Below, in pieces: positions 2 to 64,000 of a stretch of 64,000 bases of DNA. This DNA is from Vicinamibacterales bacterium (GTDB lineage Bacteria > Acidobacteriota > Vicinamibacteria > Vicinamibacterales > JAMQPK01). Within the stretch, counting starts at the first letter, position 1. The number at the start of each line of letters is the position of its first letter. The notes under the pieces are model-generated. The model ran no database searches and was not told where the DNA came from. It saw nothing but the letters and a program-made list of their open reading frames with translations. The position numbers were made by a program, and so were the translations under genes. The stretch is from assembly GCA_963787755.1 (NCBI GenBank), contig CAWBEG010000002.1, positions 351,101 to 415,100 of the forward strand. The letters are read 5' to 3'.

Positions 2-139
2 GTGGTGCCGGGCAGCAGCTTCTTCAACGATCGCACGGCCGGGCGCACGAAAGTGCGATTCGTGTACAGCAAGAAAGACGAGACGCTGCTGGAAGCCGAC
101 AAGCGGCTCGCGAAGCTGCGCGCCAAGGTAGCTCGATAA
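2..139 (+). CDS. 3' end of an aminotransferase-like gene (5' part lies outside the window)
   Basis: The frame is open from the window edge to TAA at 137-139. The translation VVPGSSFFNDRTAGRTKVRFVYSKKDETLLEADKRLAKLRAKVAR resembles the C-terminus of class I/II PLP aminotransferases. Confidence 0.45.
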   Translation: MVPGSSFFNDRTAGRTKVRFVYSKKDETLLEADKRLAKLRAKVAR

Positions 140-224
140 CGAAAAAGGCAGAACGAAGAACGAATAGAGATTCGCTCGGTGCGGTCTGCCTGCTTTATTC
201 GTTTTTCGTTCTTCGTTTTTCGTT
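139..224. repeat. Imperfect inverted repeat built from AACGAA-type words between convergent genes; probable bidirectional terminator hairpin
   Basis: aacgaaaaaggcagaacgaagaacgaata (139-167) faces its near reverse complement tattcgtttttcgttcttcgtttttcgtt (196-224). Confidence 0.6.
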
Positions 225-229
225 AGGTC

Positions 230-1055
230 CTAGTACCGCACCACTCCACCAAAGTAGATTCCCTTCGCCTTGAAGTCTCCGTGATCATCCTCGAAGACGT
301 AGCCGAGGTTCAGGCTGCGGTAGCCGATCTGGGCGCCGACGTAGTCGTTGAAATTCACCGTGCCGTAGAGGTCGAAGTCGAAGTAGTGCGCCTGGTAGCG
401 CTCATCGATGCCTGACGGAATCTTGAAGAGATCGAGCTCGCCCGTGATCGAGATGTTCGGCACCACGTAGACCCGCCCGATCCCGCCGATCGCAGGAATG
501 GGCGCCTGCGCGCGTGCGAACTCGCGTTCCGAGCGACGCGGCCTGGAGGGTCGCCTGGATGTCGGTGGCTTTGGCCTGCAGCACGATCCCGACGAACCCC
601 CGATCGCGGTAGATGAAGTCGTATTCGTAGCCGAGATGCCATGTCTTCCACGAGAGCTCGGTGGTTACCGGCAGATTGACGTCGTACCGGATGCCGTTGA
701 AGACGAACTCGCGATGCACGGTCGAGACGGCGGTGTAGGTCATCGGGAGATAGTTGATGCGGAACTTGTGCTTGCGGCCGGGCCGCAGCACGATGCGCAG
801 CTCGGGGATCTGCTTCTTTTCGATGCCGAGATCGGCGACGGCGTCGATTCTGGTGCCGAGCACGCCGAGCGATTCGCTCGCGATCTCGAACTCGGGCGGC
901 GGATTCCACCAGCCGAACGAGGCTTCGATGTGATACCGCTCGCCGGTCGCAGGGTCTGAAAATGGCGTTGCGGTGAACTGCGCGTCTGCTTTCATCGGCA
1001 TCAGAAGCACGGCGTACATGAGAAACAGGCCGATCACTGGCGTTCGAATCGACAT
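230..1055 (-). CDS. Outer-membrane beta-barrel protein (hypothetical), frame broken in this assembly
   Basis: ATG at 1055 opens a signal peptide MSIRTPVIGLFLMYAVLLMPMKADA. The sequence has an alternating amphipathic strand pattern and ends ...GIYFGGVVRY with a terminal aromatic residue. ORFs 402..1196 and 230..466 join across a frame change near 470-500. Confidence 0.6.
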
Positions 1056-1197
1056 CGTCACGCGTCCTTTGAATGAATAGTGCCCGGCGTAAGCCGGACC
1101 GCCCCGGTGTGAATTGAACGCCGCCGGAAAAACGGCGGCATGCGAGGCCTGCTGGGAGAAGGCACCTAAGAATAGCACGCTATACTGAAATGCCATA

Positions 1198-2958
1198 GTG
1201 ACTCCGGTTCGCCGCCTCCTCCCTTATATCGGCCGCTACCGCCGGGAATACATACTTGGCTTCGCTTCCCTGGTGCTGTGCTCGACGATGTTCGCGGTGT
1301 CGCCGCTGGTGCTGCAGTTCGCCATCGACGATCTGTACGCGGGGGTCACCAGAACGAAGCTGGCGTTCTACGCGCGCGTGCTGCTGCTGATTGCCGGGCT
1401 CGCCGGGTACTTCCGGTACCAGATGCGGCGCATCATCATCAGCGCGTCGCGCGGCTTCGAGTACGACCTCCGCAACGACTTCTTCGCCCACCTCGAGCGC
1501 CTGCCGGTGTCGTTCTTTCAGCAGAACCGGACCGGCGATCTGATGTCGCGCGCGACAAATGACCTCAGCTCCGTCCGCATGATGGTGGGGCCGGCGGTGA
1601 TGTACCTCGCCAATACGCTCATCACCGCGGTGGTCAGCCTGTCGCTGATGTTCTCGCTCGACGTGCGGCTGACGCTCATCGTGCTGCTGCCGCTGCCGAT
1701 CGTATCGATCACCGTGAAGATGTTCGGCACCGCGATCCACAAGACATTCGAAGAAGTGCAGGAAAAGCTCTCCGACATGAGCGCGGTGGTGCAGGAGTCG
1801 CTGACCGGCGTGCGTGTCGTGCGCGCGTATCGTCAGGAGGAGGCCGAGATCGCCCGCTTCCGCGAGGCGAACATCGATTACCTGCGGCACAACAAGCGGC
1901 TGAGCCGGCTGCAGGGGGCATTCTTCCCGACGATGTCGCTGTTTCTCGGCATCAGCGCGCTGCTTGCGTTGTGGCTCGGCAGCCGCGACGTGATGAGCGG
2001 ACGCCTGACCGTCGGCGAGCTCGTCGCGTTCAACGCGTATCTCGCGCAGCTGGCGTGGCCGATGATCGCGTTCGGATGGGTCACGAATCTGCTCGAGCGC
2101 GGCATGGCCTCATGGAAGCGCATGCTCACCGTCATGGAGACGGTGCCTGCGTCGGTGACGAGACGGATGAGACGGGATTGGAAGCAGTCACGGGTATCAC
2201 GCGTGCGAGGGGCGATCGAATTCCGGAACCTGAGCTTCCTCTACGGCAATCGCGAAGTGCTGAGCAACGTCTCGTTCTCGGTAAGGCGGGCGAGACGGTC
2301 GCCATCGTCGGCGCCACGGGATCCGGCAAATCGACGCTGGTCAATTTGCTGCCGCGCCTGCAGAACCCTCCAAGGGGTACCGTGTTCATCGACGGACGTG
2401 ATGTTCGCGACATTCCGCTCAGCGATCTGCGCGGCATCATCGGCTTTGTGCCACAGGAGCCGTTCCTGTTTTCCGATACGCTCGCCGACAACGTCGCGTT
2501 CGGCGTGCCGGGAGTGAAGCAGGACGCCGTCGCGCGCATCGAAGCCGCTGCATCGGTCGCCCAGCTCGACAAGGACGTTCGCGACTTCCCGCACGGCTAC
2601 GAGACGATGGTCGGGGAGCGCGGCATCACGCTGTCGGGCGGGCAGAAGCAGCGCACCGCCATCGCGCGCGCCGTCGTCACCGATCCGCGCATTCTCATTC
2701 TGGATGATGCGCTGTCCGCGGTGGACACGTACACCGAGGAGGAGATCCTGACGCGCCTGCGCGGCGTGATGAAGGAGCGGACGGCCATCATCATTTCGCA
2801 TCGCATTTCGACCGTTCGCGACGCCGATCAGATTGTCGTGCTGGACGCCGGACGCGTGGTCGAGAAGGGCACGCACGACCAGCTGATCCGCCGCGGCGGA
2901 CACTATGCGGAGCTGTACAAGAAGCAGCTGCTGGAGGAGGAGCTCGCGGCCTCGCTGA
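1198..2958 (+). CDS. ABC exporter, fused permease/ATPase half-transporter (MsbA/MdlA-like), frame broken
   Basis: A six-TM type I exporter domain is followed by Walker [10 protein letters not shown], the signature LSGGQKQR and Walker B ILILDDA. The frame changes near 2282 (..VSFSV / [10 protein letters not shown]). The stop is not resolved; TGA at 2956-2958 abuts the next ATG. Confidence 0.85.
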
Positions 2959-4781
2959 ATGTCGTTCCACGAAGAAGAAGTCCTCGGCAAGGCCTACGAT
3001 GCGCGGCTGATGCGCCGCCTGCTGGCGTACCTGCGCCCGCACAAGTGGTACGTCGCCGGTGCGCTCCTGGCGCTCGTCGGCGACGCGGTCGTCCAGCTGG
3101 CGCCGCCGTATCTCGTCAAGATCGCCATCGATCAGTACATCGCGCAGGGGGACGTGCCGGGCTGAACAACATCGCGCTCGTATACCTCGCGGTGCTGGTC
3201 GCGTCGTTCACGCTCGAATACGCGCAGACCTACATGATGCAGATGATCGGCCAGCGCATCATGTTCGACATGCGCATGCAGATTTACACCCACCTGCAGC
3301 GGCTGGATCTGTCGTTCTACGACCGGAACCCCGTCGGGCGGCTGATGACGCGCGTGACGACCGACGTCGACGTCATCAACGATCTGTTCACGTCGGGCGT
3401 CGTCGCCGCGTTCGGCGATCTGTTCATGCTCGTCGGCATCATGGTGACGCTGCTGTGGATGGACTGGCGGCTTGCCTTGATTGCCTTCTCGGTGCTGCCG
3501 CTGATTCTTGTTCTCGCGCAGTGGTTCCGGCGGAACGTGCGCGAGTCGTACCGAAAAGTGCGCCTGAGGATCGCGCGCATCAACGCCTTTCTCAACGAGC
3601 ACATCAACGGCATGGCGACGGTCCAGCTGTTCCGCCGTGAAGAGGTGAACTACGGGCGCTTCGAGCACATCAACCGGGAGCATCGCGACGCCAACGTCGA
3701 GCAGATTTTCTTCTACGCCGTGTTTCTGCCGGCGGTCGAGTTCGTCGCCGCGATCGCGACGGCGCTGATTCTCTGGTACGGCGGCGGCTTCGTGCTGAAC
3801 AACACGCTGACGCTCGGATCGCTCGTGGCGTTCATTCTCTACGCCGGCCGGTTCTTCCGTCCGATCAGCGACATGTCGGAAAAGTTCAACACGCTCCAGG
3901 CCGCCATGGCGTCATCGGAGCGGATTTTTCAGCTGCTCGATACTGAGGTCGCGGTAAAAAATTCCCTGACAGGGCAGAGGCAGCAGAGGGCAAGAGGGCA
4001 CATCGTCTTCGACAACGTGTCGTTTGCGTACAAGGACGACGACTACGTGCTTCGGAACGTCTCGTTCGAAGTGAAGCCAGGCGAGCGGGTAGGCATCGTC
4101 GGTGCCACGGGCGCGGGGAAGTCCACGCTCATCAGCCTGCTGCTGCGGTTTTACGACGTGACGAGCGGGCGCATCCTGATCGACGGCGTCGATATCCGCG
4201 CAATGGATCTCGGCACGCTGCGGAAGATGTTCGGTCTCGTTCTGCAGGACGTGCATCTGTTTTCAGGCACGATTGCCGGCAATATCCGGCTGGGCGACGA
4301 CTCGATCGATGATGCGCGGGTGCGCGACGCGGCGCGAGCGGTCCACGCGCATCGGTTCATCGAATCGCTTCCCGGCGGTTACGACGCGCGGGTCGCGGAG
4401 CGCGGCGCGACGCTGTCGGTCGGGCAGAAACAGCTGCTGTCGTTTGCGCGCGCCCTCGCGTTCGATCCGTCCGTGCTGATTCTGGACGAAGCGACCTCGA
4501 GCGTCGACACGGAGACCGAGCTGCTGATTCGCGACGCACTGCGGGTGCTGATGTCCGGCCGCACCACGCTTGCGATCGCTCATCGTCTTTCGACGATCCA
4601 GGACATGGACAACATCCTCGTGTTCCACAAGGGCAAGCTGCGCGAGGCTGGCAGTCACCAGCGGCTGCTGGCGATGCGCGGGATTTACTACAAGCTGTTT
4701 CAGCTGCAGTACAAAGCGGCTACTCCGGCGGCGGCTCAGGACGGTCGGAGGTCGCGGTCCTCCAGGGTCTCTCAAACGTAG
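2959..4781 (+). CDS. ABC exporter, fused permease/ATPase half-transporter (MdlB-like partner), frame broken
   Basis: ATG at 2959. A TM domain is followed by [17 protein letters not shown] and ILILDEATS. The frame changes near 3160. Confidence 0.85.
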
Positions 4782-5361
4782 GATTCGGCAGCGGCGCGAC
4801 GCTGCCGTCCGGGATGCGTTCGGGGCGCGGCTGGCGCGGCGGCGGCGGCTGCTGCGGTTCGTCGTCCGGTCTCACGTACGGGATCCGGCGATGAAAGAGC
4901 GTTTCCATCAGCGGCGTCGTGTCCTTGGGGTTCCATCCGAGACGAAGCACGACGAGATGCACGTCCTGCCGGCCGAAACGCAGCGCGTCGAAGCAGCTCC
5001 ACATGTACACGTCGAGCTCGTTGCCCTGCACTTCGGGGCCCGTGTCCATGATCGTGTAGACGCCGTCGTACTGGTTGGATTCGAAATCGGCCTGAATGAC
5101 CGATCCCACCGGAAGCATTTCCGCATCCGCGGCGGCGACGCCGCTGCGAGCCGCGACGCCCGACGCGGTCGTGTGCCCTTTGCAGTATGCCGTCGCTTTG
5201 AACTGCAGGCGCGCGCCCGGAATCGGGCGCAGCGTGCCCTTGAGCAGCTCAGCCTGGCGCGAGCCGTAGCGCGAATCCGAGACGGTCGCTTCGTACAGAA
5301 GCACGAAGGCCGCCACCAGCATCATGCTGGGGAAGATACGCCGCCAGAAATATTTCCTCAT
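4720..5361 (-). CDS. 3D-domain (MltA/RlpA-like) cell-wall protein with a Pro-rich tail
   Basis: ATG at 5361 overlaps the thiL stop (ATGA). An N-terminal TM helix is followed by the 3D-domain pattern [16 protein letters not shown]...[13 protein letters not shown]...[19 protein letters not shown]. Confidence 0.6.
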
Positions 5362-6383
5362 GCGAAATGTTCGAACCCCGCCGGCAGCTCTTCGGTGCTG
5401 CCGTTGCGGCTCACGACGCATCGCGCGATCTGTCGTCAGCCGCCCGATGCGGGTGACGGTGAGATCGCCGGCCAGCCGTCTCGCGTTCTTCAGACGCGAG
5501 CGCATCCTGGGCGATACCGCAAACAGGAGTTCGTAATCTTCCCCGCCACCGAGGGCATCGCGCAGTGTCGCGCCCTCCTCGATGGGCAATGCATCAACCT
5601 CGACGATCGCGCCAAGGCCGCTGGCCTCGCCGATTTGCCGTATCCCGTCGGCAAGGCCATCACTGAGATCGATGCACGCGCGTGCCGCGCGATTGCGGCC
5701 GAGCATCAACCCAAAACGCGTCCGAGGCTCGGGCCGCAGATACCGCATCGACGCGCGGGTCGTCGCAGCTTGTCGCGTCCGAAGCGGCGAAGCCGCGGCG
5801 GCGGACAGCATGCGTAACCCGCGGCAGCGCCCCCGAGCGTGCCCGTGACGTAAAGATCATCGCCGGCGCGACCGCCCGCACGTGTGAGGACGCGGCGCCT
5901 GTGAACCGATCCGGTAGCAGTCACGTCGACAATGAGCGGCCCGGGGGAGCGGGCGATGTTGCCGCCGACGATGGAAATGCGGGCTCGCGCGGCCAGGGCG
6001 GTCAGACCGTCGAGGAGCGCATCAACGCTCGCAACGGGCATCGCAGGCGGCAGCACGAGCGACAAAAGGGCGACGCGCGGCGCCGCGCCCATGGCCGCAA
6101 GATCGCTCAGATTGACGGCGAGCGCCTTGTGACCGATATCGGCCGCTCCGACGAACGTCTGGTCGAAGTGTACGCCCTCGACCTGGGAATCGGTAGTCAG
6201 AACCTCGAGCAGGTTTCGCTCGGGTTCGACGACCGCCGCGTCGTCGCCGATGCCGACAATGACGAAGGCCGGAGCAGGTGGGATTCGCTGGCGGATACGC
6301 TCGATGAGCGCATGCTCTCCGACATCGCCCACAGTCTGTGCCAATCCCTGATCCCCGATCCCTAATCCCTGGCGGGAGATCAT
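5358..6383 (-). CDS. thiL: Thiamine-monophosphate kinase, frame broken twice
   Basis: Motifs [40 protein letters not shown] and the C-terminal [10 protein letters not shown] are recovered across three frames, with breaks near 5815 and 5425. The start is ATG at 6383 or, more likely, GTG at 6332. With the GTG start, the GGGATT word element is intergenic. Confidence 0.8.
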
Positions 6384-7954
6384 TTCGCGTACTCGACGGC
6401 GCGCGTTTCCCGGATGACCGTCACCTTGATGTGCCCCGGGTATTCGAGCTCGTTCTCGATGCGCTTGGCGATGTCCTTCGACAACCATACTGCCTCTTCA
6501 TCCGAGATCCGCTCGCTTTCGACCATGATGCGAATCTCGCGCCCGGCCTGCAGCGCGAACGCCTTCGATACGCCCTTGAACGAATCGGCGATCTCCTCGA
6601 GCTTTTCGAGCCGCTTCACGTACGACTCGAGAATGTCGCGGCGCGCGCCGGGCCGGGCCGCCGAGATCGCATCTGCCGCCTGCACGATCATCGCTTCGAG
6701 CGACGGCCAGTCGATGTCCATATGGTGCGCCGCCATCGCCATGACGACCGGCTCGCTCTCGCCGTATTTGCGCAGCAGGTCGATGCCAATCTGCAGATGC
6801 GTTCCCTCGAGCTCGCGGTTGACCGCCTTGCCGCAGTCGTGGAGAAACGCGGCGCGGACAGCGACGTTCGCATCGAGGCCCACTTCCTTCGCCATGATTC
6901 CGGCCAGATAGGCGACCTCCTTGGAGTGATTCAGCACGTTCTGGCCGTAACTGGTTCGGTACTTGAGCCGTCCCATCAGCTTCTGCAGCTCGGGGTGGAG
7001 GTCGTGCATGCCCAGCTCGAACGCCGCCGCTTCGCCGTCCTTCCGGACCGACTCTTCCATCTCCGCCTTCACCTTTTCCACGACTTCTTCGATGCGCGCC
7101 GGATGGATGCGACCGTCGGCGATGAGCCGCTCGATGGCCTGCTTGGCGATCTCGCGCCGATAGGGATCGAATCCCGACAGGATGATCGCGCCCGGCGTGT
7201 CATCGACGATGAGATCGACGCCCGTCGCCTGTTCGAGCGCGCGGATGTTGCGCCCCTCCCGGCCGATGATGCGTCCTTTCAAATCGTCGCTCGGCAAGTC
7301 GACCACCGAGACGGTGGTTTCAGTGGTGTGCTCGGCCGCGCTGCGCTGGATGGCCTCGGTGATGTACTGGCGGGCTTTAGCGCCGGCCTGCTCGCGGGCC
7401 TCGGCGTCGAGGCGCTTTACGAGATTCGCGGCGTCGCGCCGCGCGTCAGCCTCGATGTGTTTGAGCAGGAGGTCTTTGGCCTCCTCCGTCGTCAACCCCG
7501 ACAACCGCTCGAGCTCGTGCTGCTGCGCGGCGACGAGCTGCTCATATTTGACGGCGGCAGCCGACGTGCTCTTCTCGCGATCGGCGATCGTCTGCGACTG
7601 CGCCTGGAGCTCGCGTTCCTTCCGTTCGGCTGAAGCCATCTTGTCGGTAAGGGTCGACTCCTTGCGGCGCAGCTGTTGTTCGGTGTCGGAGAGCTGCTGG
7701 GATTTGTCCCGCGCGACCCGCTCGGCTTCGGTGCGTAGCTCGTGGGCCTTTTCCTTGGCCTCGAGCAGCGCTTCCTTCTTGCGGCTCTCGGCGTCGCGAT
7801 CGGCATCCTTCATGACGCGAATCGCCTGCTCTTCCGCGCGGCCGATGGTCTCGGCGGCGATGCGCTTGCGATTGGCGACCCAGTAGGCGAAGACGATGCC
7901 GGCGACGACCGCGGTGATGACGCCATTGATGAGATAGAACGGATACAGGCCCAT
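6380..7954 (-). CDS. rny: Ribonuclease Y
   Basis: An intact 524-aa ORF with an N-terminal TM helix, a Lys/Glu-rich coiled coil, a KH domain and an HD domain (LHDCGKA...HH). Confidence 0.95.
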
Positions 7955-7965
7955 TCGGGTCCTTA

Positions 7966-8114
7966 ACTGGTTCCGGGTTCCGGTGTCCGGTTCCGGGGAT
8001 TCTGGTTCTCGATTCTCGGTTCGCGGATCGGGCTCCGCGACTGGAACCCGGAACGGTGAACCAGAACTCAGAACCCGGAACGAACCCGGAACGTGGAACG
8101 CGGAACCTGGAGCC
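7966..8114. repeat. ~150-nt imperfect hairpin made of GGTTCCG words (left arm) and CGGAACC words (right arm)
   Basis: The left arm ggttccgggttccggtgtccggttccgggg... (7969-8039) faces ...gaacccggaacgaacccggaacgtggaacgcggaacc (8041-8110). It lies between the candidate 6S RNA and the rny start. Confidence 0.7.
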
Positions 8115-8345
8115 TAGAGGAGAGTATGCGAAAGGCCCCGCTTTGCCGTGTGGGGAGGTCGAATGGACCTGCGTAAGCAGGTGGAACCGCTCGGGAGCCG
8201 CGCTTTAGGCTTCCTCGCACCGAGGCATGCGCACCACGCGGCGTTGCGATTCTCTTAGGTTAAACGTTGGCCCAAACGAGCCTCCGAAACCATCACGCGC
8301 AAAGCAGGGAACTCAGTTTCCGATAGTGATCTTAGTCCCCTCCGG
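8112..8345 (-). ncRNA. ssrS: Candidate 6S RNA (boundaries approximate)
   Basis: It lies directly downstream of the zapA stop, which is the E. coli zapA-ssrS arrangement. Long-range complementary segments give a rod shape: 8336-8343 with 8116-8123 (with G-U pairs), 8298-8309 with 8137-8149, and 8277-8286 with 8154-8161. A local hairpin at 8167-8182 sits on the 3' side of a central unpaired region. No covariance model was run. Confidence 0.4.
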
Positions 8346-8346
8346 C

Positions 8347-8637
8347 CTAGGGGGCAAGCGCCGCGTCGACGAGGCGCTCGAGGGCTTCGGTGCGCTCGGC
8401 GAGGGCGCCGCGGCTCGCTTTCTGAACGTCCTGGCAGCGGAACAATTCGTCCGCGATGTTCAGCGCCGCCAGCACGGCAAGCCGTACCGAGTCGCCCGAG
8501 GGCGTCGATTCGGACGCTGCCCGTATTTTTTCGTCCACGTACGTGGCGAGCACGTTGACGTAGCGCGCGTCGAGCTCGCTGCGGATGGGATAACGCTGTC
8601 CGCGAATCTCCACCGACACGACGTGAGGCTCAGGCAT
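8347..8637 (-). CDS. zapA: Cell division protein ZapA
   Basis: 96 aa, MPEPHVVSVEIRGQRYPIRSELDARYVNVLATYVDEKI...LAVLAALNIADELF. This matches the typical ZapA pattern and lies downstream of pheT, as in Bacillus. Confidence 0.85.
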   Translation of the reverse strand: MPEPHVVSVEIRGQRYPIRSELDARYVNVLATYVDEKIRAASESTPSGDSVRLAVLAALNIADELFRCQDVQKASRGALAERTEALERLVDAALAP

Positions 8638-8645
8638 TGGGGGTC

Positions 8646-8927
8646 CTACAGACTCAGTCCTTCGAGCTGTTCCAGCATGTCGGAGACGCGGCCGCGAATC
8701 GACTCGCGCTCCATTCTCAGCGCGGCGACTTCGGCGAGGCCAGTCTCCGATTCGGCGATTCTGGCTCTCGCCGACTCGAGGTCGCGAGACAGTCTCGCGA
8801 TCTCTTCGGAGGCGCGCGCCTGGTCGGCCTTCAGCCGGCCGATCATCGCGACGAGCATTTTCACTTTCTCTTCCAGACGGTCGATGGGTTCCAGATCGAC
8901 AGAACGGGCGGTTGCAGCACGGGACAT
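8646..8927 (-). CDS. ZapB-like coiled-coil cell division protein
   Basis: A 93-aa all-coiled-coil protein (IDRLEEKVKMLVAMIGRLKADQARASEEIARL...) immediately upstream of zapA. Confidence 0.6.
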   Translation of the reverse strand: MSRAATARSVDLEPIDRLEEKVKMLVAMIGRLKADQARASEEIARLSRDLESARARIAESETGLAEVAALRMERESIRGRVSDMLEQLEGLSL

Positions 8928-8959
8928 TGGGGGACCTCCGAAGTTCAGGATCCGTGACC

Positions 8960-11045
8960 CTATCGTTGTATTGCGTCGTGCGCATTTTTCAGCGCAGTTA
9001 AAATCTCTTTCATCGCCGTCTCCACTTCCGCATCTGTCAGCGTCCGCTCGAGGGAACGGAACGTGAGGCGAAGCGAGAGACTGACGCGCCCTTCGGGCAC
9101 GCCCTTGCCTTGATACCGATCGAACTCGCGCACCGAGACGAGCGTGTCCGGAGCAGCCGCACGGATAGTGCCACGAACTGTTTCCGCGGGCAAGGTCTCG
9201 TCGACCACGATCGAGATATCGCGCGCGCTAGAGGGATAGCGGGGAAGCGGCTTTACGGCCAGGGGCGCCTGCGATTGCGACGCGGTGATGGCATCGAGGT
9301 CGAGCTCGGCCACATATACGTCGTCGCTCGCCGACAATCCCGCCGCTGCGACGATGGCCGGCGTCAGCATGCCGACGCTGCCAATCGCACGCCCCTCGAC
9401 AGAGATCGTGGCCGCACGGCCGCGGACGAGGTAGCGGGGCACCAACGCCCCATCGAAGGCCACCTCGGCCTGCAAAGCGCCCGCGATGGCTTCGACGATC
9501 CCCTTCGCGTCGAAGAAGTCCGTGGGACGGTGTCCGGCGCTCCAGTGCACTGTAACGCCGCTGCCGGTGAGCGCTGCGGCAACGCGGCGTGACTCGCCCG
9601 CTCGCGTCATAGTGGCTCCGAGCTCGAAAAGCCGCACATCGGCGCGTTCGCGGTGGCGATTGTGCGCGACTGACGCCAGCAGGCCGGGCAGCAACGACGG
9701 TCGAAGCACTGAGAATTGCGCAGACGAGCGGATTGCCGATTGGCACAATCGCCCGATCGTCAGCAAACTGGGCGGCTACCGCCGCGTCAATGAAGGAGAA
9801 GGTCAACGCTTCCGAGCAGCCGCTGGCGAGGAGTACTCTCCGCACGAGCCGATCGCGTCCTATCGCCGGGTCCGAGGGTGCAGGAGGGGCGCTGAGCGAC
9901 GGAAAGGTCGACGGCAAACGGTCGTAGCCGTAGTGACGTGCGACATCCTCGATCAGATCGGCTTCCCGCAGGACGTCGACGCGAAATGTCGGCGCACCAA
10001 CGTCCCATCCGGCGTTGTTCCGGCGAATCTGAAACCCCAGCCCCTTGAGGATGCGCTCGACGTCGGGATCGCCGATCTCCAGTCCGAGCACGCGCTGAAT
10101 GCGCTCCCGGCGCAGTTCGATTTGTCTCGGGGTCACTGGGACGGGATATTCGTCGATCGCGCCGCCGCGCGCCGTTCCTGCGCCAATGTCCTCGAGAAGC
10201 GAGATGGCCCGCTCGATGCCTTGCACCGCCGCGTTGACGTCGGCACCCCGTTCGAACCGCGCCGATGCCTCCGTCTTGAGCCCCAGCTTCCTGCTCGTGC
10301 GGCGAACGCTCTTCGGATCGAAAAACGCGCTTTCGAGCACGATGGTTTTAGTTCTGTCGCTCACTTCCGACCCGCCGCCGCCCATCACGCCCGCAACCGC
10401 TTGCGCCTTGTCGCGGTCGGCTATCACCAGCATCTCAGGATCGAGCGCGCGATCGATGCCGTCGAGCGTTGTGATGCGCTCGCCGGGTGCCGCCCGGCGA
10501 ATCCGGATTTCCTTTCCCGCGAGCCTCTCGAGGTCGAACGCATGCATCGGCTGTCCGAGCTCGAGCAGGACGTAGTTTGTGACGTCGACGACGTTGTTGA
10601 TGGGACGCACACCGGCGGCCTGCAGTCGTGACGCCAGCCAGCCGGGCGAGGGCCCGATGGTGACATCCGCGACTGCCGCCGCATAGCGGGGGCACAGATC
10701 TGGCGCTTCCAGCTTTACCGCCACATCTTCAGTTGGCTTGGATGTGAGCGGCTTCGGGACCAGTGGCTTCACCGGCAGTGAGTACGCGGTGCCCACCTCG
10801 CGTGCGAAACCGATGACGCTGAGCGCATCGGGCCGGTTGGCCGTCACCTCGAAATCCAGGACAGCGTTGTCGGAATGGCTCCGGGAGCCTTTTTCGCGCG
10901 AGCCCTCGAAAAAGGCTCCCGGAGCTGTTTCGACCCGCTCGATACTCGAGAGCTCGAACCCCCGCGATGTCAGCATTTCGCCGAGTGCTTCCGCCGATAC
11001 GTTCACGTCCACGAAATCGCGGAGCCAGGAGGCGACGATTTTCAT
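8960..11045 (-). CDS. pheT: Phenylalanine--tRNA ligase beta subunit, frame broken; short form lacking the OB-fold tRNA-binding domain
   Basis: MKIVASWLRDFV..., VTANRPDALS, RPINNVVDVTNYV, the B3/4 and B5 domains and the C-terminal FDRYQGKGV anticodon-binding-like domain are present. ORFs 9228..11045 and 8960..9766 join near 9725-9765. Confidence 0.9.
10878..10925. repeat. Perfect 19-bp inverted repeat (10-nt loop), exactly 48 nt, in frame inside pheT
   Basis: gctccgggagcctttttcg (10878-10896), loop cgcgagccct, then cgaaaaaggctcccggagc (10907-10925). It encodes APGAFFEGSREKGSRS. Confidence 0.85.
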
Positions 11046-11076
11046 TGTTTAGATGCGGCGATTAGCTGCTTAGTAT

Positions 11077-12123
11077 TCAAACGGGAAACTGCTCCAGGAA
11101 ACGGAGGTCGTTCTCATAGAACAGGCGGATGTCGTCGACGCCATATTTCAGAATCGCAATCCGCTCGATGCCCATACCGAACGCGAATCCCGAAATGCGG
11201 TCGGGATCGTACCCGACCGATTCGAACACCGCCGGATGCACCATACCGCTGCCGCCGATCTCGAGCCATCCCGTGCGCTTGCAGATCGGGCAGCCGCTAC
11301 CGTGGCAGAACACGCAGCCGATGAACACCTCCGCACTCGGCTCGGTGTATGGGAAGAAGCTCGGCCGAATCTGCACTTTTGTGTCCGGCTCGAACAGCTC
11401 GTGCGCGAACGCTGTGAGCGTGCCCTTCAGATCGGCCATCGTGATGCCGTCGCCGACGACGAGTCCTTCGACCTGTTGAAACATCGGCGTGTGCGTCAGG
11501 TCGAGGTCGTCGCGGCGGTAGACCTTGCCGGGCACGATGATTCGCACCGGGGGCGGGTGGCTCTCCATGTAGCGGATCTGCATCGGCGAGGTGTGCGTCC
11601 GGAGCAGCGTCGCCGGACGGCCGAGGCCTGCAACCTCGCCCGAGAGATAGAACGTGTCCTGCATGTCGCGCGCAGGATGTTCGGCCGGCATGTTGAGCGC
11701 AGCGAAGTTGTGATAGTCGTCTTCGATTTCCGGTCCTTCGAGCACCTGGTAGCCGAGGCGCGTGAAGATCGCTTCAATCTCTTCGCGAACGATGGTCAGC
11801 GGATGGCGATGCCCAATCTGCGGCGCCCGGCCGGGCAGAGAGATGTCGACGGCGCCCACGGGCGCTTTCGCCGCATCCAGCGCGGCTTTGCGCTCGTTGA
11901 GCAGCTGCTCAATCTCCTGTTTGAGCTCGTTGGCGCCCTTGCCGAGCAACGGCTTGAGGTCGGGTGGCGCCGAAGCCACCGACTTCATCAGCGCGGTGAC
12001 GAGGCCGTTTTTTCTTCCGAGGTATTTGTCGCGGAGCGACTGAAGGTCCGGCGCCGACGAAAGGCGCGCCAAGTCCTCCTGGAACTCGGCGCGCAGTCGG
12101 GTAATGTCGGCGTCGGTCGTCAC
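11077..12123 (-). CDS. pheS: Phenylalanine--tRNA ligase alpha subunit
   Basis: An intact 348-aa ORF with a GTG start. Class II motifs are present (HPARDMQDTFY, FRPSFFPYTEPSAEV, GSGMVHP...GFAFGMGIERI). Confidence 0.95.
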   Translation of the reverse strand: MTTDADITRLRAEFQEDLARLSSAPDLQSLRDKYLGRKNGLVTALMKSVASAPPDLKPLLGKGANELKQEIEQLLNERKAALDAAKAPVGAVDISLPGRAPQIGHRHPLTIVREEIEAIFTRLGYQVLEGPEIEDDYHNFAALNMPAEHPARDMQDTFYLSGEVAGLGRPATLLRTHTSPMQIRYMESHPPPVRIIVPGKVYRRDDLDLTHTPMFQQVEGLVVGDGITMADLKGTLTAFAHELFEPDTKVQIRPSFFPYTEPSAEVFIGCVFCHGSGCPICKRTGWLEIGGSGMVHPAVFESVGYDPDRISGFAFGMGIERIAILKYGVDDIRLFYENDLRFLEQFPV

Positions 12124-12124
12124 A

Positions 12125-12560
12125 TTAGGCGCGGGCTTCGCGGACCTTGACGGTCTTCGCGGGCCGCGCGGCCTTTTCGGCGCGCACCGGCCGCGGCGTG
12201 GCGAGCGGCTTGGCAGCCTTGGCCTGGGCCGCGATCGCGGCGAACGACGCCGGCTCGTTCACGGCGATGTCTGCCAGCACCTTGCGATCGAGCGTGACGC
12301 CCGCAGCCTTGAGGCCCGCCATGAACTGGCCGTAGGTCAGGCCATGCTCGCGAGCGGCGGCGTTGATGCGGACGATCCACAGCGTGCGGAAATCGCGCTT
12401 CTTGCGGCGGCGTCCGACGAACGCATACTTGAGCGCCGTGTCGACCGACTCTTTCGCCGCCCGATACAGCTTGCTCTTGTTCGCGTAATAACCTTTGGCA
12501 CGCGCGAGCAGTTTCTTCCGCTTGGCTCTGCCGTACTGTTCCTCTCTTTACTCTCGGCAT
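12125..12560 (-). CDS. rplT: 50S ribosomal protein L20 with a Lys/Ala/Pro-rich C-terminal extension, frame broken near the 5' end
   Basis: MPRVKRGTV is followed, after a shift near 12530, by ...[28 protein letters not shown]...[22 protein letters not shown]. The tail is [32 protein letters not shown]. Confidence 0.85.
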
Positions 12561-12618
12561 TCGTCCCGCTTCCTGCGCTTCAGCTACCAGCAGCTCTACT
12601 GAACCTACAGCTAACCAG

Positions 12619-12816
12619 CTATTTATACGGCAGCATCCGCGCGAGCTTCGCCGCGTCGGCTTTCGCCACGACCTGCGTGCCGCGCATGTGCCGCTTCCGC
12701 TTCGCCGACTTGCTCGTCAGAATGTGCTGCTTGAAGGCCTTGCTGCGCACGAACTTGCCGCCGGCCGTCTTCTTGAAGCGCTTCGCGGCGCCTCTGTGCG
12801 TTTTGAGTTTTGGCAT
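12619..12816 (-). CDS. rpmI: 50S ribosomal protein L35
   Basis: 65 aa, [34 protein letters not shown]... Confidence 0.95.
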
Positions 12817-12873
12817 CGTTTGCTCTTTGCTCTCTGCTCTTTGCTCTCAGCTGTCAGCTCTCTGCTCTCTGCT

Positions 12874-13467
12874 CTATTCCTCGGCCGCCTTCACAGCTGC
12901 CTGACGCGCCGGTGCGCGCCCACCGCCTCCAGAGGGCTTCTTCGCCAGGATCGTGTGCATCTGGTTGCCTTCCTGGCGCGGCATCGTCTCGGCAATCGCG
13001 ACATCAGCGAGTTCATCGCAGAGTCGCTCGAGAATGCGCCGCCCGATCTCGGGATGCGCCATCTCGCGGCCGCGGAAGAAAATCGTGGCCTTGACCTTGT
13101 CGCCGTCAGCGAGGAAGCGCTCGATGTGCTTCTTCTTGAACTGATAGTCGTGCTCGTCGACCTTGGGCCTGAATTTGATTTCCTTGACGTCGATGACCTT
13201 CTGGTGCTTTTTCGCTTCGCGCGCCCGCTTCTGTTCCTGATACTGATACTTGCCGAAATCCATGATCCGGCAGACGGGCGGCACGGCGGTGGGGGAGATC
13301 TCCACCAGGTCCAGCCCTTTTGCCTTCGCGATGACGAGGGCCTGCGGCGGCGGCATGATGCCCAGCTGCTTCCCATCATCATCGATGACCCGAATTTCCC
13401 TGACGCGGATGCGCTCGTTTACCCGAACTCGGTCGTCACGCCGTGGTCCCGATCGATCGAATGCTAT
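12874..13467 (-). CDS. infC: Translation initiation factor IF-3 with a non-canonical ATA start
   Basis: The conserved N-terminus [23 protein letters not shown] lies upstream of the first ATG. The frame is open back to ATA at 13467-13465, preceded by AGGAGG. IF-3 genes classically use AUU or AUA starts for autoregulation. Confidence 0.9.
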
Positions 13468-13498
13468 AAAACCTCCTGGCGCTGGTAGCGATCAGCTA

Positions 13499-15476: not shown

Positions 15477-15532
15477 ATGGAAGCTGGAATCTAAAATCTA
15501 GAATCTAAAATCTAAAACTACAATCTAAAAAC

Positions 15533-15608
15533 TGGTAGGCGCGGGTGGAATCGAACCACTGACCTCCTGCGTGTCAAGCAGGCGCTCTAACCGCTGAGCT
15601 ACGCGCCT
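15533..15608 (-). tRNA. tRNA-Val (anticodon GAC), CCA encoded
   Basis: Manual cloverleaf: acceptor AGGCGCG/CGCGCCT, D stem GCTC/GAGC, anticodon stem CCTGC/GCAGG with loop TTGACAC, T loop TTCGATT. The T stem has one A-C mismatch at positions 49-65. Confidence 0.85.
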
Positions 15609-15699
15609 ATACGTCAACACATAGGCAACAACAGAACGAAAAATTATAACAGATTGCGCCGCTTGCGCCGCCTACGCCTGCGGCTTCGGCGCGGCAAGC

Positions 15700-15972: not shown

Positions 15973-16001
15973 CAGATCTCCATGGTCCGGCTAAGCCGGA
16001 C

Positions 16002-18347: not shown

Positions 18348-18530
18348 GGTCGGTGCTTAGTCGCGATTGAAATATCCAAGGTCACCCATGATTGCGGCAT
18401 GTCATTCTATCGGCTCTGACCGACCCTCGACCAGCAACTGGCGGCCATGACCGACCATCGACCTTGGACTATGGCCCGCCTGCGCGCTGCGCGCTTCGGC
18501 GCGGCGGGCCCGCGATGCTACTCTCGTGGA

Positions 18531-20057: not shown

Positions 20058-20078
20058 CTGCTAGCTACCAGCTACCAG

Positions 20079-21795: not shown

Positions 21796-21813
21796 ATCCA
21801 GCTGCTAGCTCGT

Positions 21814-50108: not shown

Positions 50109-50112
50109 CGGT

Positions 50113-50179
50113 CAGAGCCGAGAGCCGAGAGCCGAGAGCCGAGAGCAGAGGGCAGAGAGTGCCATCTGCTCTCTGCCCT
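50113..50179. repeat. Four tandem GAGAGCC heptamers followed by an 11-bp-stem hairpin; shared terminator of convergent genes
   Basis: cagagccgagagccgagagccgagagccgagag is followed by agggcagagag (50149-50159), a 9-nt loop and ctctctgccct (50169-50179). Confidence 0.65.
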
Positions 50180-52128: not shown

Positions 52129-52217
52129 ATTAGCCGTCCGCTCGTGGTATGCTCTCGCCTTCCGATTCATCAGGTAGTGTCCGGCTTTAGCCGGACCTGT
52201 CGAGCGAAGGAGTTGCC

Positions 52218-53105: not shown

Positions 53106-53163
53106 GTGGTCGATGCTAGGTGGTAGCTCGTAGCTAGCAGGGACGAAACTGTGAACGCAGAAA

Positions 53164-55323: not shown

Positions 55324-55412
55324 GACTCTTTCGACTCGTGGACTCTGGACTGTGGACTCTCGACTCTGGACTGCCGACTCTTCGACTCTCGACTCCGTGA
55401 CTCCTCGACTCC
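55324..55412. repeat. ~90-nt degenerate tandem array of GACTC(T/G) words next to the tRNA-Thr 5' side
   Basis: gactctttcgactcgtggactctggactgtggactctcgactctggactgccgactcttcgactctcgactccgtgactcctcgactc. Confidence 0.8.
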
Positions 55413-56258: not shown

Positions 56259-56265
56259 AGGAGAT

Positions 56266-60733: not shown

Positions 60734-61550
60734 ATGTAGCCGTCGCGCCTGAGCTTCTCAAACGCGTCTTCGCTCTCCTGATCCTGCGCGCGCCCCGCGC
60801 GCTCGGGCACGTTCGTCCCTTTCAGCTCCTCGACGATCTCGGCGACGGTCTTCGCCGTCGACTTGAATCGAGCCAGTGCAGGGCGCGCAGCCGAGCGACC
60901 GATACCGATGTCCCGTTCCGTCGTCGAAGTACAGCGGGATGACCGGAATGTTCTCACGCTGGATGTACTCCCACACGTTGAGCTCGGTCCAGTGCAGAAG
61001 CGGATGAATGCGGATGTGCGTGCCGGGCGCGAAGTCGGTCTTGAACTGATTCCAGAATTCAGGCGGCTGATCCGACGCGTTCCACTCCATGTTGGCGTTG
61101 CGCGGCGAGAAGTACCGCTCCTTCGCGCGCGTGGGATCTTCGTCGCGCCTCACGCCGACGATGATGCCGGTGTAGCCGTAATGCTCGATCACCTGCTGCA
61201 GGCCGTCTTTCTTGAGCATGCCGCAGCATTCGACGCGCGTGGCGCGTCCGTTGGGATAGGTGTTGCCGGCTTCGAGCACCGGCCTTGTTCATGCCGACGA
61301 CGAGCTGCAGGTTCCACTCGCGCACCAGGCGGTCGCGGTACTCGATCATCGACGGAATCTTGTAGCTCGTGTCGATGTGGACGAGCGGAAACGGCACGTG
61401 GCCAAAAAATGCCTTCCGCGCGAGCCACAACAGGGCCGTCGAATCTTTGCCAATGCTCCAGAGCATCGCCATGTTGTCGAACTTGGCGAATGCTTCGCGC
61501 ATGATGAAAATCGATTCGCTCTCGAGAGCGTCCAGGTGATCGTGCTGCAT
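60730..61550 (-). CDS. cysD: Sulfate adenylyltransferase subunit 2, frame broken twice
   Basis: [34 protein letters not shown] and [11 protein letters not shown] are present, and the C-terminus is EKLRRDGYM. Breaks are near 61280 and 60890. The stop overlaps the cysN GTG. Confidence 0.85.
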
Positions 61551-61662
61551 GTGTATGGATAAAACGCGTGTGCCGAACCTTCCTATTGTATCGAGTTGTT
61601 GAAGATCCTGCCAGCGTGCGCTAACATTTCAAGTTTACGGATTCGGCGAAATTCCCCACAGT

Positions 61663-64000
61663 ATGCCTGAAACTCCTGTCGCGAGGGCCGCTACCGAGAT
61701 CGTCGTCCGCGGCGCGCGCACGCACAATTTGAAGAACGTCGATCTGGCGCTGCCGCTGGGCCAGCTGATCATCGTCACCGGCGTCAGCGGCTCGGGCAAG
61801 TCGTCGCTCGCGTTCGATACGATTTACGCCGAGGGGCAGCGCCGATACGTCAGCTCGCTGTCGGCCTACGCGCGGCAGTTTCTCGAGCGGATGGAGAAGC
61901 CCGACGTCGATCGCATCGAAGGGATCTGTCCCGCCATCGCGATTCGCCAGAAGAACAGCATCAGAAACCCTCGATCGACGGTCGGCACGACCACCGAGAT
62001 CCACGATTACCTGCGGCTGCTGTTTGCCAGAGTCGGGCGCACGTTCTGCCGGCAGTGCGGCCAGGAGGTCGTGCGCGACACGGCCGAGATCGTCGCGCGG
62101 CACCTTGGCGGCTTGCCCGAAGGCACCCGGCTGCTCATCGGCTTCGACATGCCGGTCATGGATCCTGGCGGTGTCCATGAGGGTACTGACGCTGAACCTG
62201 ACGAAGAGGATTCAGAACTGCAGGGATTAGGGATTTGGCCGCCTCCGCCGAAGGCTTCGGCGCACCGAGTCCCGCTTCGCTGACGTTTACGCTCAACGAG
62301 CTTCGCAGGAAGGGATTTCATCGTCTGTACGTGAACGGGCGCACGGTCACGCTGGACGACGTCGCGCCGGCAGAGCTGCGCGATCAGTCGACGCTGAAGG
62401 TCATCGTCGATCGCGTAAAGCTCGAAGGCGACATGCGAGGCCGGCTCACCGATTCGATCGAGATGGCGTACCGCGAAGCGGGCGGAACGGCATTCGCGAT
62501 TGAAGATCCGGGGGCTGTCCGCGAAGCGAACAGCGCAAGGTGGATGCGAAGACGCACATCTTCAGCGAGCGGTTCGAGTGTCAGAACTGCAACCTCACCT
62601 ACGAAGCGCCGCAGCCGCGGCTGTTTTCGTTCAACAACCCGTTCGGCGCGTGCCCGACGTGCCATGGGTTCGGCAACATCATCGAGCTCGATCTCGATCT
62701 GGTCGTTCCCGATCCCGCCAAGTCGATCCAGCAGGGCGCCATCGAGCCGTGGACGAAGACGCATTATCGCGCGCAGCTGGCCGAGCTGAAGCGGGCGGCG
62801 AAGCCGGCGGGCGTGTCGATGGACATCCCGTGGAGAGATCTGAACGACGACGAGAAGCGCTTCATCGTCGAAGGGGACGGGAAAGGGTACGACGGCATCC
62901 GCGGGTTCTTCCGCTGGCTCGAGCGCAAGAAATACAAGGTTCACGTCCGAGTGTTCCTCAGCCGGTATCGGGGTTATCTGACGTGTCCCGACTGCGGCGG
63001 CGCGCGCCTGCGCCGCGAGGCGCGCGACGTCAAGGTCGGCGGCCGCACGATCGATCGGGTGTCGTCCGACACTGTCCGCGAGGCGCAGCAATTCCTCGAC
63101 GCCCTGCAGCTCACCGAAAAAGAAACGGCCATCGGCGACAAGGTGCTGAAGGAGATTCACAAGCGGCTGAAGTTCCTCAGCGACGTGGGATTGGACTATC
63201 TGACGCTCGACCGCCTGTCATCGACGCTGTCGGGCGGCGAGTCGCAGCGCATCAATCTCGCGACGTCGCTGGGATCGTCGCTGGTCGATACGCTGTACGT
63301 GCTCGACGAGCCGTCGATCGGCCTGCACTCGCGCGACAATCTGCGGCTCATCAACATCCTTCGGCAGCTTCGCGATCAGGGCAACACGGTGCTCGTCGTC
63401 GAGCACGACGAAGACATGATTCGCGTCGGCGACACCATCATCGACCTCGGACTCGGAGCGGGCGAGCAGGGGGGGCGCGTGGTATTTTCCGGATCGCTCG
63501 AGAACCTGCTGCACGATCAGCGATCGCTGACGGCGAAGTACCTGCGCGGCGACCTGGCGATTCCAGTGCCGTCGACGCGGCGCCGCGGCAGCGGGCAGAA
63601 GCTCCGGCTGCTCGGAGCGACCGAGCACAACCTGAAGAACGTCGACATCGAGATTCCGCTGAACACGCTCACATGCATCACGGGTGTCAGCGGGTCTGGC
63701 AAGTCGACGCTCGTCCACGACGTGCTGTATGCCGCCGTGAAGCGGGCGAAGGGCGGATCGGAAAAACGCGTCGGCGCCTTCCGCAAGCTCGAAGGCACCG
63801 AGTTCGTCACCGACGTCGTGCTCGTCGACCAGACGCCGATCGGGCGCACGCCGCGGTCGAATCCAGTGACGTACCTGAAGGCGTTCGATCCGATCCGCGA
63901 GATTTTCGCCGCGACGAAGGATGCAAAATCGCGCGGGCTCACCGCGAGCCATTTCTCGTTCAACGTCCCCGGAGGCCGCTGTGAAGCCTGCCAGGGCGAA
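61663..64000 (+). CDS. uvrA: Excinuclease ABC subunit A (3' end outside the window), frame broken twice
   Basis: [67 protein letters not shown], a second GVSGSGKST and CEACQG are present. Breaks are near 62230 and 62515 (a G5 run). Confidence 0.9.

Follow-up and report, generated by a model that had tools for sequence, protein, structure and literature searches.

We analysed 64,000 nucleotides of DNA from a soil-dwelling Vicinamibacterales bacterium (contig CAWBEG010000002.1, positions 351,101 to 415,100; this whole stretch is called the window below), in which short repetitive arrays occupy spacers between genes. The arrays are tandem repeats of a 7-nt unit, and among close relatives they differ by whole units and by the word that is repeated. 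We consider it likely that they are heptanucleotide microsatellites driven by slippage (with a unit of 7 and occasionally 8–9 nt) and not a family of elements defined by its sequence. Below we present the evidence for this from the window and from related genomes, weigh the other explanations against it and compare the arrays with repeats described in other bacteria.

Period and distribution of the arrays in the window

The window was scanned for self-match at lags of 4–15 nt, with dinucleotide-preserving shuffles as the control. We observed 12 lag-7 arrays where 0.2 were expected, together with 7 lag-14 arrays; each of the remaining lags gave two arrays at most. Tandem Repeats Finder (TRF) likewise assigned a period of exactly 7 to nearly all of the stutters that a first-pass annotation of this DNA had listed (intervals in Table 1). 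That annotation had described them as stuttering words of 6–8 nt. The arrays are indeed real and far beyond chance, but in the window the unit is exactly 7 nt, and the listed words are tandem heptamers with one or two variable positions. When the 16 listed intervals were tested one by one, lag-7 periodicity was significant in 13 (p ≤ 0.014). The exceptions were 12581–12620, 37535–37560 and the adjoining 37501–37527 (p = 0.10).

All arrays in the window lie in non-coding DNA or overlap gene ends, which bears out their description as interspersed non-coding repeats that follow stop codons or separate cistrons and whose words recur at unlinked sites. Two exact shared cores were also confirmed: the 15-mer GAGAGCAGAGGGCAG is present at 18977 and 50141, and the 14-mer CAGGGATTAGGGAT at 62221, with its reverse complement at 6358. 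The arrays had been said to fill nearly every short spacer, and this proved too broad, as a lag-7 array is present in 12 of the 50 spacers of at least 20 nt, or about a quarter. They are concentrated at 0–21 kb, a housekeeping-operon region where three of them lie within the thrS-infC-rpmI-rplT-pheS operon on the − strand, and at 50–55 kb. From 22000 to 50000 (28 kb) heptamer arrays are almost absent despite spacers of like length. The G+C content of the window is 60–66%. An Rfam scan of the window at gathering thresholds returned only 6S RNA and two tRNAs, the arrays matching no RNA family. CRISPR was ruled out for the arrays because the units are 7 nt long and spacers between them are absent.

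Arrays in related genomes

The relatives of its ThrS protein put the window in Vicinamibacterales, Acidobacteriota (the best match has 91% amino-acid identity). We pooled the window with 91 fetched related loci (1.47 Mb in total; these relatives carry labels of the form L0xx) and searched the pooled set for TRF arrays of at least three copies. Period 7 accounted for 140 arrays, period 8 for 22 and period 9 for 18, while the other periods had no more than 9 each. Although 87% of the sequence is coding, 118 of the 140 period-7 arrays are non-coding, and the 22 others lie mostly at gene 3' ends or at mis-called starts. Units of 5, 6, 10 and 11 nt are essentially absent from the relatives. Given the tail of periods 8 and 9, the ruler must be soft, with its peak at 7. 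Non-coding arrays of 8- or 9-nt units that look similar, inverted pairs included, are found at L003 2492–2590, L021 3858–4005 and L044 9890–9998, and further ones at L081 7807–7890 and L015 5726–5934.

The 140 period-7 arrays use 92 canonical words, so a common vocabulary across genomes was rejected. In more distant genomes the spacers of the rpmI/rplT region hold heptamer arrays with yet other words (GTTCGGG, GGATGAC, AAATGCG and CAGTTNN). The position of the arrays relative to genes is far from even: they are present in 4 of 102 divergent spacers, whereas the figures are 94 of 676 for tandem spacers and 11 of 69 for convergent ones (105 of 745 non-divergent spacers). Their density is 1.0–2.2 per 10 kb in loci with a ThrS identity of at least 72% and 0.04 per 10 kb in those with 66–71%. 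Thus the arrays are ∼30-fold rarer in more distant Vicinamibacterales and the trait is confined to one clade. In the loci compared, this array-rich clade has no more total non-coding DNA than is found elsewhere.

Turnover among close strains

The first-pass annotation had proposed comparing orthologous spacers in related genomes, and both changes in copy number and presence or absence of arrays were seen. The comparison with the closest strain, L082, covers the window from ∼200 to 16,900; exact-protein look-ups with the P-II and cupin proteins for the rest of its contig gave no match. An L35 protein identical to that of the window is encoded on nine contigs from independent metagenomes, and the spacers of these contigs are drastically different. 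The infC-rpmI spacer contains 8 units in the window, 4 in L081 and 3 in L082. Between the window and L082 (96.6% nucleotide identity) this array differs by a 35-nt indel, i.e. 5 × 7 nt. The same spacer has inverted GCTGTCA/TGAGAGC arrays in L086, L087 and L089, and in other strains a REP-like hairpin of the form GTAG-N-GTCCGGC-TTCA-GCCGGAC.

The neighbouring rpmI-rplT spacer behaves in a similar manner. Its TAGCTGG array is decayed in the window, and clean inverted TAGCTGG/CCAGCTA arrays are present in L048, L085 and L088, GGTTGGT/ACCAACC in L086 and L087, GTTCACC/GGTAAAC in L084 and L089, and REP-like hairpins in L081 and L083. Whichever word is used, the two arms of the rpmI-rplT arrays are complementary. 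All strains have an AGAGCA(A/G) core beside the rpmI ATG, and in the window it is this core that has been amplified, which argues that arrays are born from local sequence. We also observed that the pheS-pheT spacer of L082 (∼5754–5901, compared with window 11046–11076) carries a 117-nt insertion that is absent in the window; in L002, L028, L081 and L083 the pheS-pheT region has GACGATC heptamer arrays, which gene callers include in pheT.

Hairpins and tests of function

An inverted partner array within 160 nt was found for 81 of the 140 pooled arrays (58%), compared to 3 of 140 in the control, while the remaining 42% have no inverted partner and no fold. The resulting hairpins are ∼60–200 nt long with loops of 0–92 nt and a mean predicted energy of −0.53 kcal/mol/nt. 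In the window only 139–224 and 7966–8114 form strong hairpins (z = −5.5 and −6.3, respectively), those at 50141–50179 and 37535–37560 are weak, and the long direct arrays fold no better than shuffles. The proposal that many arrays can fold into hairpins holds for the pooled set, but in the window strongly for only the first two of these sites.

Fifty hairpins lie between co-directional genes. Their predicted energy was lower on the sense strand in 25 cases and higher in 24, and G-U pairs numbered 135 and 134 on the sense and antisense strands, so that these hairpins bear no trace of selection on RNA rather than on DNA. The hairpins were no weaker after the units of one arm had been permuted (median z = −0.4), indicating that the arms match by word and not by the order of units; a register-specific, unit-by-unit compensatory pairing of the arms thus finds no evidence in this test. 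Direct arrays showed no strand bias with respect to transcription (28 purine-rich and 20 pyrimidine-rich), and a purine or Shine-Dalgarno-like bias was rejected. The median distance between the end of a direct-only array and the next start codon is 19 nt; some of these arrays, such as those in the infC-rpmI and rny-AIRS spacers, abut or replace the Shine-Dalgarno region.

A function as terminators, which had been suggested for the arrays, was rejected as a general explanation. Among the 27 terminator-like sites in the window from 1 to 20 kb only two touch an array, one of them antisense to its operon; the sense/antisense test was flat; and most arrays are operon-internal. Few of the arrays have the form of an intrinsic terminator, which is a short GC-rich stem-loop that precedes a U tract where a transcription unit ends. 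On its predicted fold, the pair at 139–224 is the one plausible terminator case.

The array at 6343–6370 contains four G3–4 tracts (GGG-ATTA-GGG-ATC-GGGG-ATCA-GGG), i.e. at least four G3 tracts with loops of 1–7 nt, and is by its sequence a G-quadruplex-type motif; it is the sole array of the window with G tracts. Its counterpart in L090 (∼90% nucleotide identity) still has 4 units.

Table 1. Arrays and related features of the window, and copies of a separate REP-like element in the window and its relatives
Position	Strand	Feature	TRF period-7 interval	Support and context
139–224	+	Inverted heptamer-array pair: AACGAAG × ∼4 (139–164), loop, TTCGTTT × ∼4 (195–224)	138–164, 198–224	Lag-7 p ≤ 0.001 for each arm; 87-nt hairpin with U-rich 3' arm on + strand; predicted RNA fold −45.3 kcal/mol (+ strand), −31 kcal/mol (− strand)
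6343–6370	−	Direct array, 4 units: AGGGATT AGGGATC GGGGATC AGGGATT	6343–6370	Lag-7 p = 0.0005; occupies the 47-nt spacer from the rny stop codon to the next gene (AIRS-domain)
7966–8114	−	Inverted pair, GGTTCCG-type then CGGAACC-type	7969–7997, 8043–8111	149-nt hairpin, predicted fold −79.7 kcal/mol; directly downstream of 6S RNA, ∼12 nt upstream of annotated rny start (7954); position and word kept in L090, with substitutions
8131–8313	−	6S RNA gene (ssrS)		Rfam RF00013, 87.3 bits, E = 7e-16; between zapA and rny; 99% identical in L090, flanking genes ∼90%
12581–12620	−	Decayed TAGCTGG array, rpmI-rplT spacer		Lag-7 p = 0.54, not significantly periodic
12817–12875	−	Direct array (AGAGCAG/AGAGCTG/AGAGCAA) × 8	12821–12875	TRF score 75; spans the entire infC-rpmI spacer, reaching from the stop codon of infC to within 4 nt of the rpmI ATG
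13487–13517	−	Direct array GCTGATA × 4.4	13487–13517	Three-frame translation; contains the true thrS 3' end (...TLIAES and stop); ends 8 nt before the infC Shine-Dalgarno AGGAGG; conserved in L048, L082, L084, L085; absent from L081, L083, L002
15487–15531	−	A+T-rich direct array, TAGATTT-type × ∼6	15488–15530	TRF score 65–72; 1 nt after tRNA-Val (3' end 15533), 11 nt before thrS (start 15476); same position has related words in L002, L028, L086 and ACTTTTA in L048, L084; 13-nt length difference from L082, alignment ambiguous there
18962–18995	+	Direct array (GAGGGCA/GAGAGCA) × 4, ruvX-mltG junction	18962–18991	Read in frame within a continuous ruvX-mltG open reading frame (ORF) (translation, coding scores); junction has heptamer arrays of other words in L048, L002, L030, L037
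20054–20083	.	Array CAGCTAC × 3–4	20063–20081	Lag-7 match 0.82, p = 0; covers the 21-nt spacer and both stops of convergent mltG and ORF 20079–20345; self-complementary via AGCT cores; predicted fold −20.2 kcal/mol, z = −1.6
21774–21815	+	Two short weak heptamer runs: GAATCTG GAAACTG GAACCTG, then CCAGCTG CTAGCTC GTAG		At or just past the stop of gene 21103–21795; lag-7 census match at 21774–21794; 21798–21815 lag-7 match 0.73, p = 0.001
37535–37560	+	Plain 10-bp stem-loop, CGAGAGCAGC...GCTGCTCTCG-type		Lag-7 p = 0.70; predicted fold −20 kcal/mol, z = −2.1; between convergent genes; contains the AGAGCAG word, not a tandem repeat
50112–50179	+	Direct array AGAGCCG × 4, then AGAGCAG AGGGCAG	50114–50159	TRF 6.6 copies, 92% matches; begins 4 nt past the DUF1501 gene stop, between convergent genes; last units pair with CTGCTCTCTGCCCT into a short hairpin; predicted fold −32.1 kcal/mol, z = −2.2
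53115–53140	+	Short array GGTAGCT CGTAGCT AGCAG, ∼3 units		Lag-7 match 0.74, p = 0; just 3' of the dienelactone hydrolase gene stop codon
55324–55412	−	Long degenerate direct array, ∼12 units GAGTCNN	55331–55412	TRF period 7 and 21; lag-7 p = 0; between a small-ORF stop codon (55422) and tRNA-Thr (55283); no hairpin, fold z = −0.4 against shuffles
62217–62238	+	2–3 units GGGATTN		Lag-7 match 0.60, p = 0.004; in the 3' end of ORF 61663–62283; has a 14-mer in common with array 6358–6371, opposite strand
52173–52197		REP-like copy, window
L002 12574–12601		REP-like copy
L083 3953–3980		REP-like copy
L024 19291–19356		REP-like copy
L022 6889–6983		REP-like copy

Origin and maintenance of the arrays

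In the reading that we favour, an array would be born out of local spacer sequence. Strand slippage then adds or removes whole units, a step shown by the 5-unit difference between the window and L082. Mutated units spread within the array and the word drifts quickly, as is shown by the word replacement among strains with identical L35. In over half of the cases an inverted array of the same word is present, and the two give an imperfect hairpin of 60–200 nt with many pairing registers. Intra-strand (quasi-palindrome) template switching, selection on pairing, or the two together may keep its arms alike. The arrays would persist only where a frame-breaking 7-nt unit and a strong hairpin are tolerated, that is, after stop codons, between cistrons, beside tRNA and 6S RNA genes and in occasional C-terminal tails, and they would be counter-selected in divergent promoter spacers and inside genes. 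The trait switches on at a clade boundary, which suggests that the 7-nt ruler may stem from some feature of replication or repair peculiar to the lineage. By analogy with REP hairpins, if the arrays affect expression at all, they probably do so in a generic, structural way (a barrier at the mRNA 3' end or a decoupling of cistrons); a word-specific effect is unlikely.

Several observations weigh against the slippage model. Slippage alone explains neither the unit of 7 nor the abrupt onset in one clade, and no determinant was identified. That the arms stay complementary through a change of word could reflect selection for pairing instead of a mutational mechanism. Some arrays are stable: the post-6S hairpin and the 4-unit GGGATYN array have persisted over ∼10% nucleotide divergence and the array upstream of thrS holds its position in several genomes, and such stability of position, word or unit number hints at constraint on at least a subset. 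Words are shared (at ≤1 mismatch) by 10.2% within a genome compared to 3.7% between genomes, an excess that pure local birth does not predict. Moreover, the loci are all centred on one operon and thus are no random sample of genomes, and the positional statistics rest on our own crude gene calls.

Could the inverted arrays be RNA structures under selection? They would then be REP-like stem-loops acting in termination, in protection of the upstream mRNA from 3'-exonucleases or in the insulation of cistrons, and the repeat format would merely be an easy evolutionary path to a long stem. The presence of arrays in transcribed spacers and their depletion between divergent genes fit this idea, as do the arms that remain complementary through word change among near-identical strains and the conservation of the post-6S hairpin at ∼90% nucleotide identity. 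True REP-like hairpins (GTAG foot, GC stem) are found in the same spacers of sister strains, as if the two were interchangeable, and the pair at 139–224 folds 14 kcal/mol better on the + strand, where its terminal arm is U-rich. As a general account we nevertheless regard selected RNA structure as unlikely, for the 50 co-directional hairpins have no sense-over-antisense advantage in energy or G-U pairs, the 42% of arrays without a partner are unfolded, a U tract is present in few arrays and the order of units carries no register specificity. In addition, most arrays lie within operons that are conserved (thrS-infC-rpmI-rplT; rny and the gene that follows it), and termination there would do harm. 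For the inverted subset, we give a low probability to a generic effect on mRNA through structure, as with REP hairpins. A bolder reading, to which we give a small chance, holds that a family-level clade acquired a molecular ruler of 7 nt that duplicates arbitrary segments (sometimes of 8–9 nt) and copies them inverted, the hairpins then being used as insulators. Candidates for the ruler would be a replicative or repair polymerase that has changed, a change in flap processing or an enzyme dedicated to the task, and the cell would use the self-renewing, "register-free" hairpins, whatever their sequence, as insulators between cistrons and behind stable RNAs. If this were true, comparative genomics could find the determinant from the sharp on/off boundary that separates the sister clades, and the finding would answer why heptamers dominate the long microsatellites of bacteria.

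Word-specific binding, mobile spread and an assembly artefact are progressively less likely, in that order. Direct arrays just upstream of start codons could serve as a platform with a 7-nt register for a protein or the ribosome (S1, Csp or a CsrA-type protein), a role that has been proposed for the TAACTGA repeats discussed below, and a G-quadruplex could be the relevant structure in GGGATYN arrays. The closeness of direct-only arrays to the next start, in some cases in place of the Shine-Dalgarno sequence, would suit such a platform, and several genomes keep the A+T-rich array upstream of thrS in the same place. There are also exactly four G tracts in the GGGATYN array of both the window and L090, a count that is preferred in Xanthomonas and Nostoc as well (PMC4692102). 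A single binder cannot explain the class, however, given 92 words in 140 arrays and no strand bias relative to transcription; words are replaced among strains with identical flanking proteins, which speaks against word-specific recognition, and G-rich arrays are a small minority. We therefore rate a binding platform as very improbable. Less probable again is that pre-formed arrays were spread as mobile or copied elements (MITE/REPIN-like) by a REP-associated transposase or by gene conversion. The same words and exact 14–15-mers at unlinked loci of the window would be expected of such elements, word sharing is ∼3-fold higher within than between genomes, and REP-like elements with a GTAG foot co-occur in the clade. 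GTAG was itself found in 14 array words where 7.4 were expected (z = 2.5, uncorrected for shared ancestry); as evidence of a link between arrays and REP elements through this RAYT cleavage motif, we set the enrichment aside as weak and confounded by orthologous arrays. On the other side, the arrays lack terminal inverted repeats, target duplications and conserved ends, they change in place by whole units and they appear seeded from local sequence near ribosome-binding sites. Within a single array the AGAGCAG, AGAGCTG and ACAGCTG families intergrade, and a shared 15-mer made of two repeat units holds little information. Lastly, single-base indel errors are present in the window, such as the extra G at 13778 that breaks thrS and others relative to L082, as would be seen if the arrays arose in assembly or polishing of the source genome. 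The first-pass annotation had named independent assemblies as the check on this, and arrays occur at orthologous positions in dozens of them, both Illumina (megahit and SPAdes, JGI assemblies included) and long-read metagenome-assembled genomes, from many studies. This effectively refutes an artefact, and we give it next to no probability.

Other features of the region

A separate REP-like family is present in the clade (Table 1). It consists of GTAG, 1–2 nt, a GC-rich stem of 7–8 bp (GTCCGGC/GGCGGAC type) and a TTCA, TTTA or CTTCAG loop. Its copies are sometimes tandem, and the same spacers hold heptamer arrays in sister strains. Among 192 non-coding GC-rich hairpins, 43 have a GTAG/CTAC foot.

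Relative to L082, thrS is frameshifted in the window by the extra G at 13778 (13700–13800, − strand). After the shift the frame that matches ThrS runs to ...NRKGSQPTLIAES, followed by a stop codon. More single-base indels relative to L082 lie inside genes at 16679, 15673, 14683, 12532 and 9724, and together these look like residual errors of long-read assembly rather than marks of pseudogenes. ThrS is also encoded by a fragmented gene in L081 and L083. The apparent start codon of infC is a non-canonical ATA, 4 nt past AGGAGG-TTTT (window ∼13440–13470, − strand), and this start motif is kept as ATA or ATC across the Vicinamibacterales loci. IF3 genes use an unusual start codon for autoregulation (AUU in E. 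coli), and by analogy the ATA/ATC start fits such an autoregulatory codon.

In the window ruvX (yqgF-type resolvase) and mltG (YceG) are joined in a single uninterrupted ORF (18447–20057, + strand), and the array at 18962–18995 is free of stop codons and preserves the frame. The ruvX gene of L048 likewise continues through its array, but it ends at a TGA that overlaps the mltG start. The ORF of the window reflects either a fusion or C-terminal tail that the array truly mediates, or an assembly indel. A subtilase gene at 26481–29072 (Peptidase_S8) contains in-frame tandem repeats of 30, 36 and 18 nt at 28524–28931 (+ strand), in its C-terminal part; with the consensus DDDNIVWGN..., this is a protein repeat unrelated to the heptamer arrays. 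The longest ORF reading of the DUF1501 gene (48477–50108, + strand) has a weak N-terminal match to PSD1 (DUF1553). The pairing of DUF1501 with PSD1 is typical of Planctomycetes, Verrucomicrobia and Acidobacteria, and the match may be the end of an upstream gene that was not resolved or another frameshift.

Use of the lineage for further study

Reports of heptanucleotide microsatellites in scattered bacteria go back to 1990, and the size of their excess was worked out in 2007; to our knowledge, neither a 7-nt ruler nor any function has been established for them. The present lineage is a favourable data set in several respects. It has ∼1–2 arrays per 10 kb, hundreds of metagenome-assembled relatives and dozens of unrelated words, which rule out a word-specific binder as the general cause. 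Within one order the arrays go abruptly from present to nearly absent, and they turn over between strains with identical ribosomal proteins. Comparative genomics can thus address two questions, namely what determines the ruler and whether selection acts on the hairpins. In practical terms, the arrays disturb gene calling (over-extended starts, array-derived C-terminal tails and the apparent ruvX-mltG fusion), and, being hypervariable, they are markers with which strains of abundant soil Acidobacteria can be typed.

Comparison with known repeats

The first-pass annotation could not match the arrays to a described class and likened them to a REP/MITE-like family. The second suggestion did not hold. 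All REP/BIME copies in a genome share one consensus imperfect palindrome, and the RAYT transposase recognises their GTAG/CTAC foot. Like them, the arrays are intergenic, form hairpins and lie after stop codons and between cistrons. Unlike them, the heptamer arrays have no consensus (92 canonical words in 140 arrays), are tandem and change in place by whole units, and GTAG is only mildly enriched in them (14 compared to 7.4). The terminal inverted repeats, target-site duplication and conserved internal sequence of MITEs were not found in the arrays either.

A described class does match, namely the heptanucleotide long simple-sequence repeats (LSSRs), which include the inverted pairs of Xanthomonas (PMC4692102; PMC4679880). 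The arrays show the period-7 excess, the confinement to non-coding DNA and gene ends and the whole-unit strain differences of this class. In the survey of Mrazek, Guo and Shah (2007), as it is cited in PMC4679880, heptamers were the most abundant of the 5–11-nt repeats in repeat-rich bacteria. As cited there and in PMC4692102, the LSSRs of that survey have a sporadic phylogenetic spread that includes the Calothrix STRR heptamers, and units that are not a multiple of three are excluded from genes. Slippage was proposed as their origin, and the one published idea on the length of the unit is that ∼7 nt corresponds to the DNA segment held at the polymerase active site (cited in the same two papers). 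Our arrays thus have in common with the LSSRs, so far as the survey is cited, the dominance of heptamers, sporadic spread, avoidance of genes and a proposed slippage origin. The survey is not reported in these citations to include Vicinamibacterales, and the present data add to it a sharp clade boundary within an order and turnover at the strain level.

The TAACTGA repeats of marine Beggiatoaceae, cyanobacteria and Bacteroidetes (MacGregor 2015, PMC4679880) are likewise intergenic direct heptamers that often lie a few nucleotides from start codons, ribosomal-protein operons included. They have one dominant word in a fixed orientation to the gene, which suggests a specific binder, and in Cand. 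Maribeggiatoa only 1 of 170 TAACTGA repeat sets is indirect, i.e. inverted (PMC4679880). In the arrays described here, by contrast, the words are diverse, the orientation is unbiased and inverted pairs are the majority.

The closest likeness in form is to the heptameric repeats of Xanthomonas (GGGAATC) and Nostoc (GGGGA(C/T)T) reported by Rehm et al. 2015 (PMC4692102). In X. campestris 70 inverted pairs able to form stem-loops were counted among 186 GGGAATC repeats. The Xanthomonas and Nostoc repeats are biased to non-coding DNA and under-represented between divergent genes, show no bias for a functional class of genes, keep their position while length and sequence vary among close relatives, and have no known function (PMC4692102). 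We observed the same 7-nt unit, non-coding bias, depletion from divergent spacers (4/102 compared to 105/745), inverted pairs (81/140) and kept position with variable length, and the GGGATYN × 4 array at 6343–6370 is of the same word class as GGGAATC and GGGGAYT. The arrays differ in belonging to an Acidobacteriota lineage and in having many unrelated words per genome (AACGAAG, GCTGATA, AGAGCAG, TAGATTT, GGTTCCG, GAGTCNN and GGGATYN). As most of these words are not G-rich, a G-quadruplex cannot be the general explanation. The X. campestris genome is ∼5 Mb; on that size its 186 GGGAATC repeats are far sparser than the arrays here, which reach ∼1–2 per 10 kb when all words are counted. Our literature searches found no report of heptamer repeats in Acidobacteria or Vicinamibacterales. 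We conclude that the arrays belong to one kind of repeat with Xanthomonas GGGAATC, Nostoc GGGGAYT and Calothrix STRR, without claiming that they form one sequence family, and that they represent a known phenomenon in a new lineage and not a new class of element.

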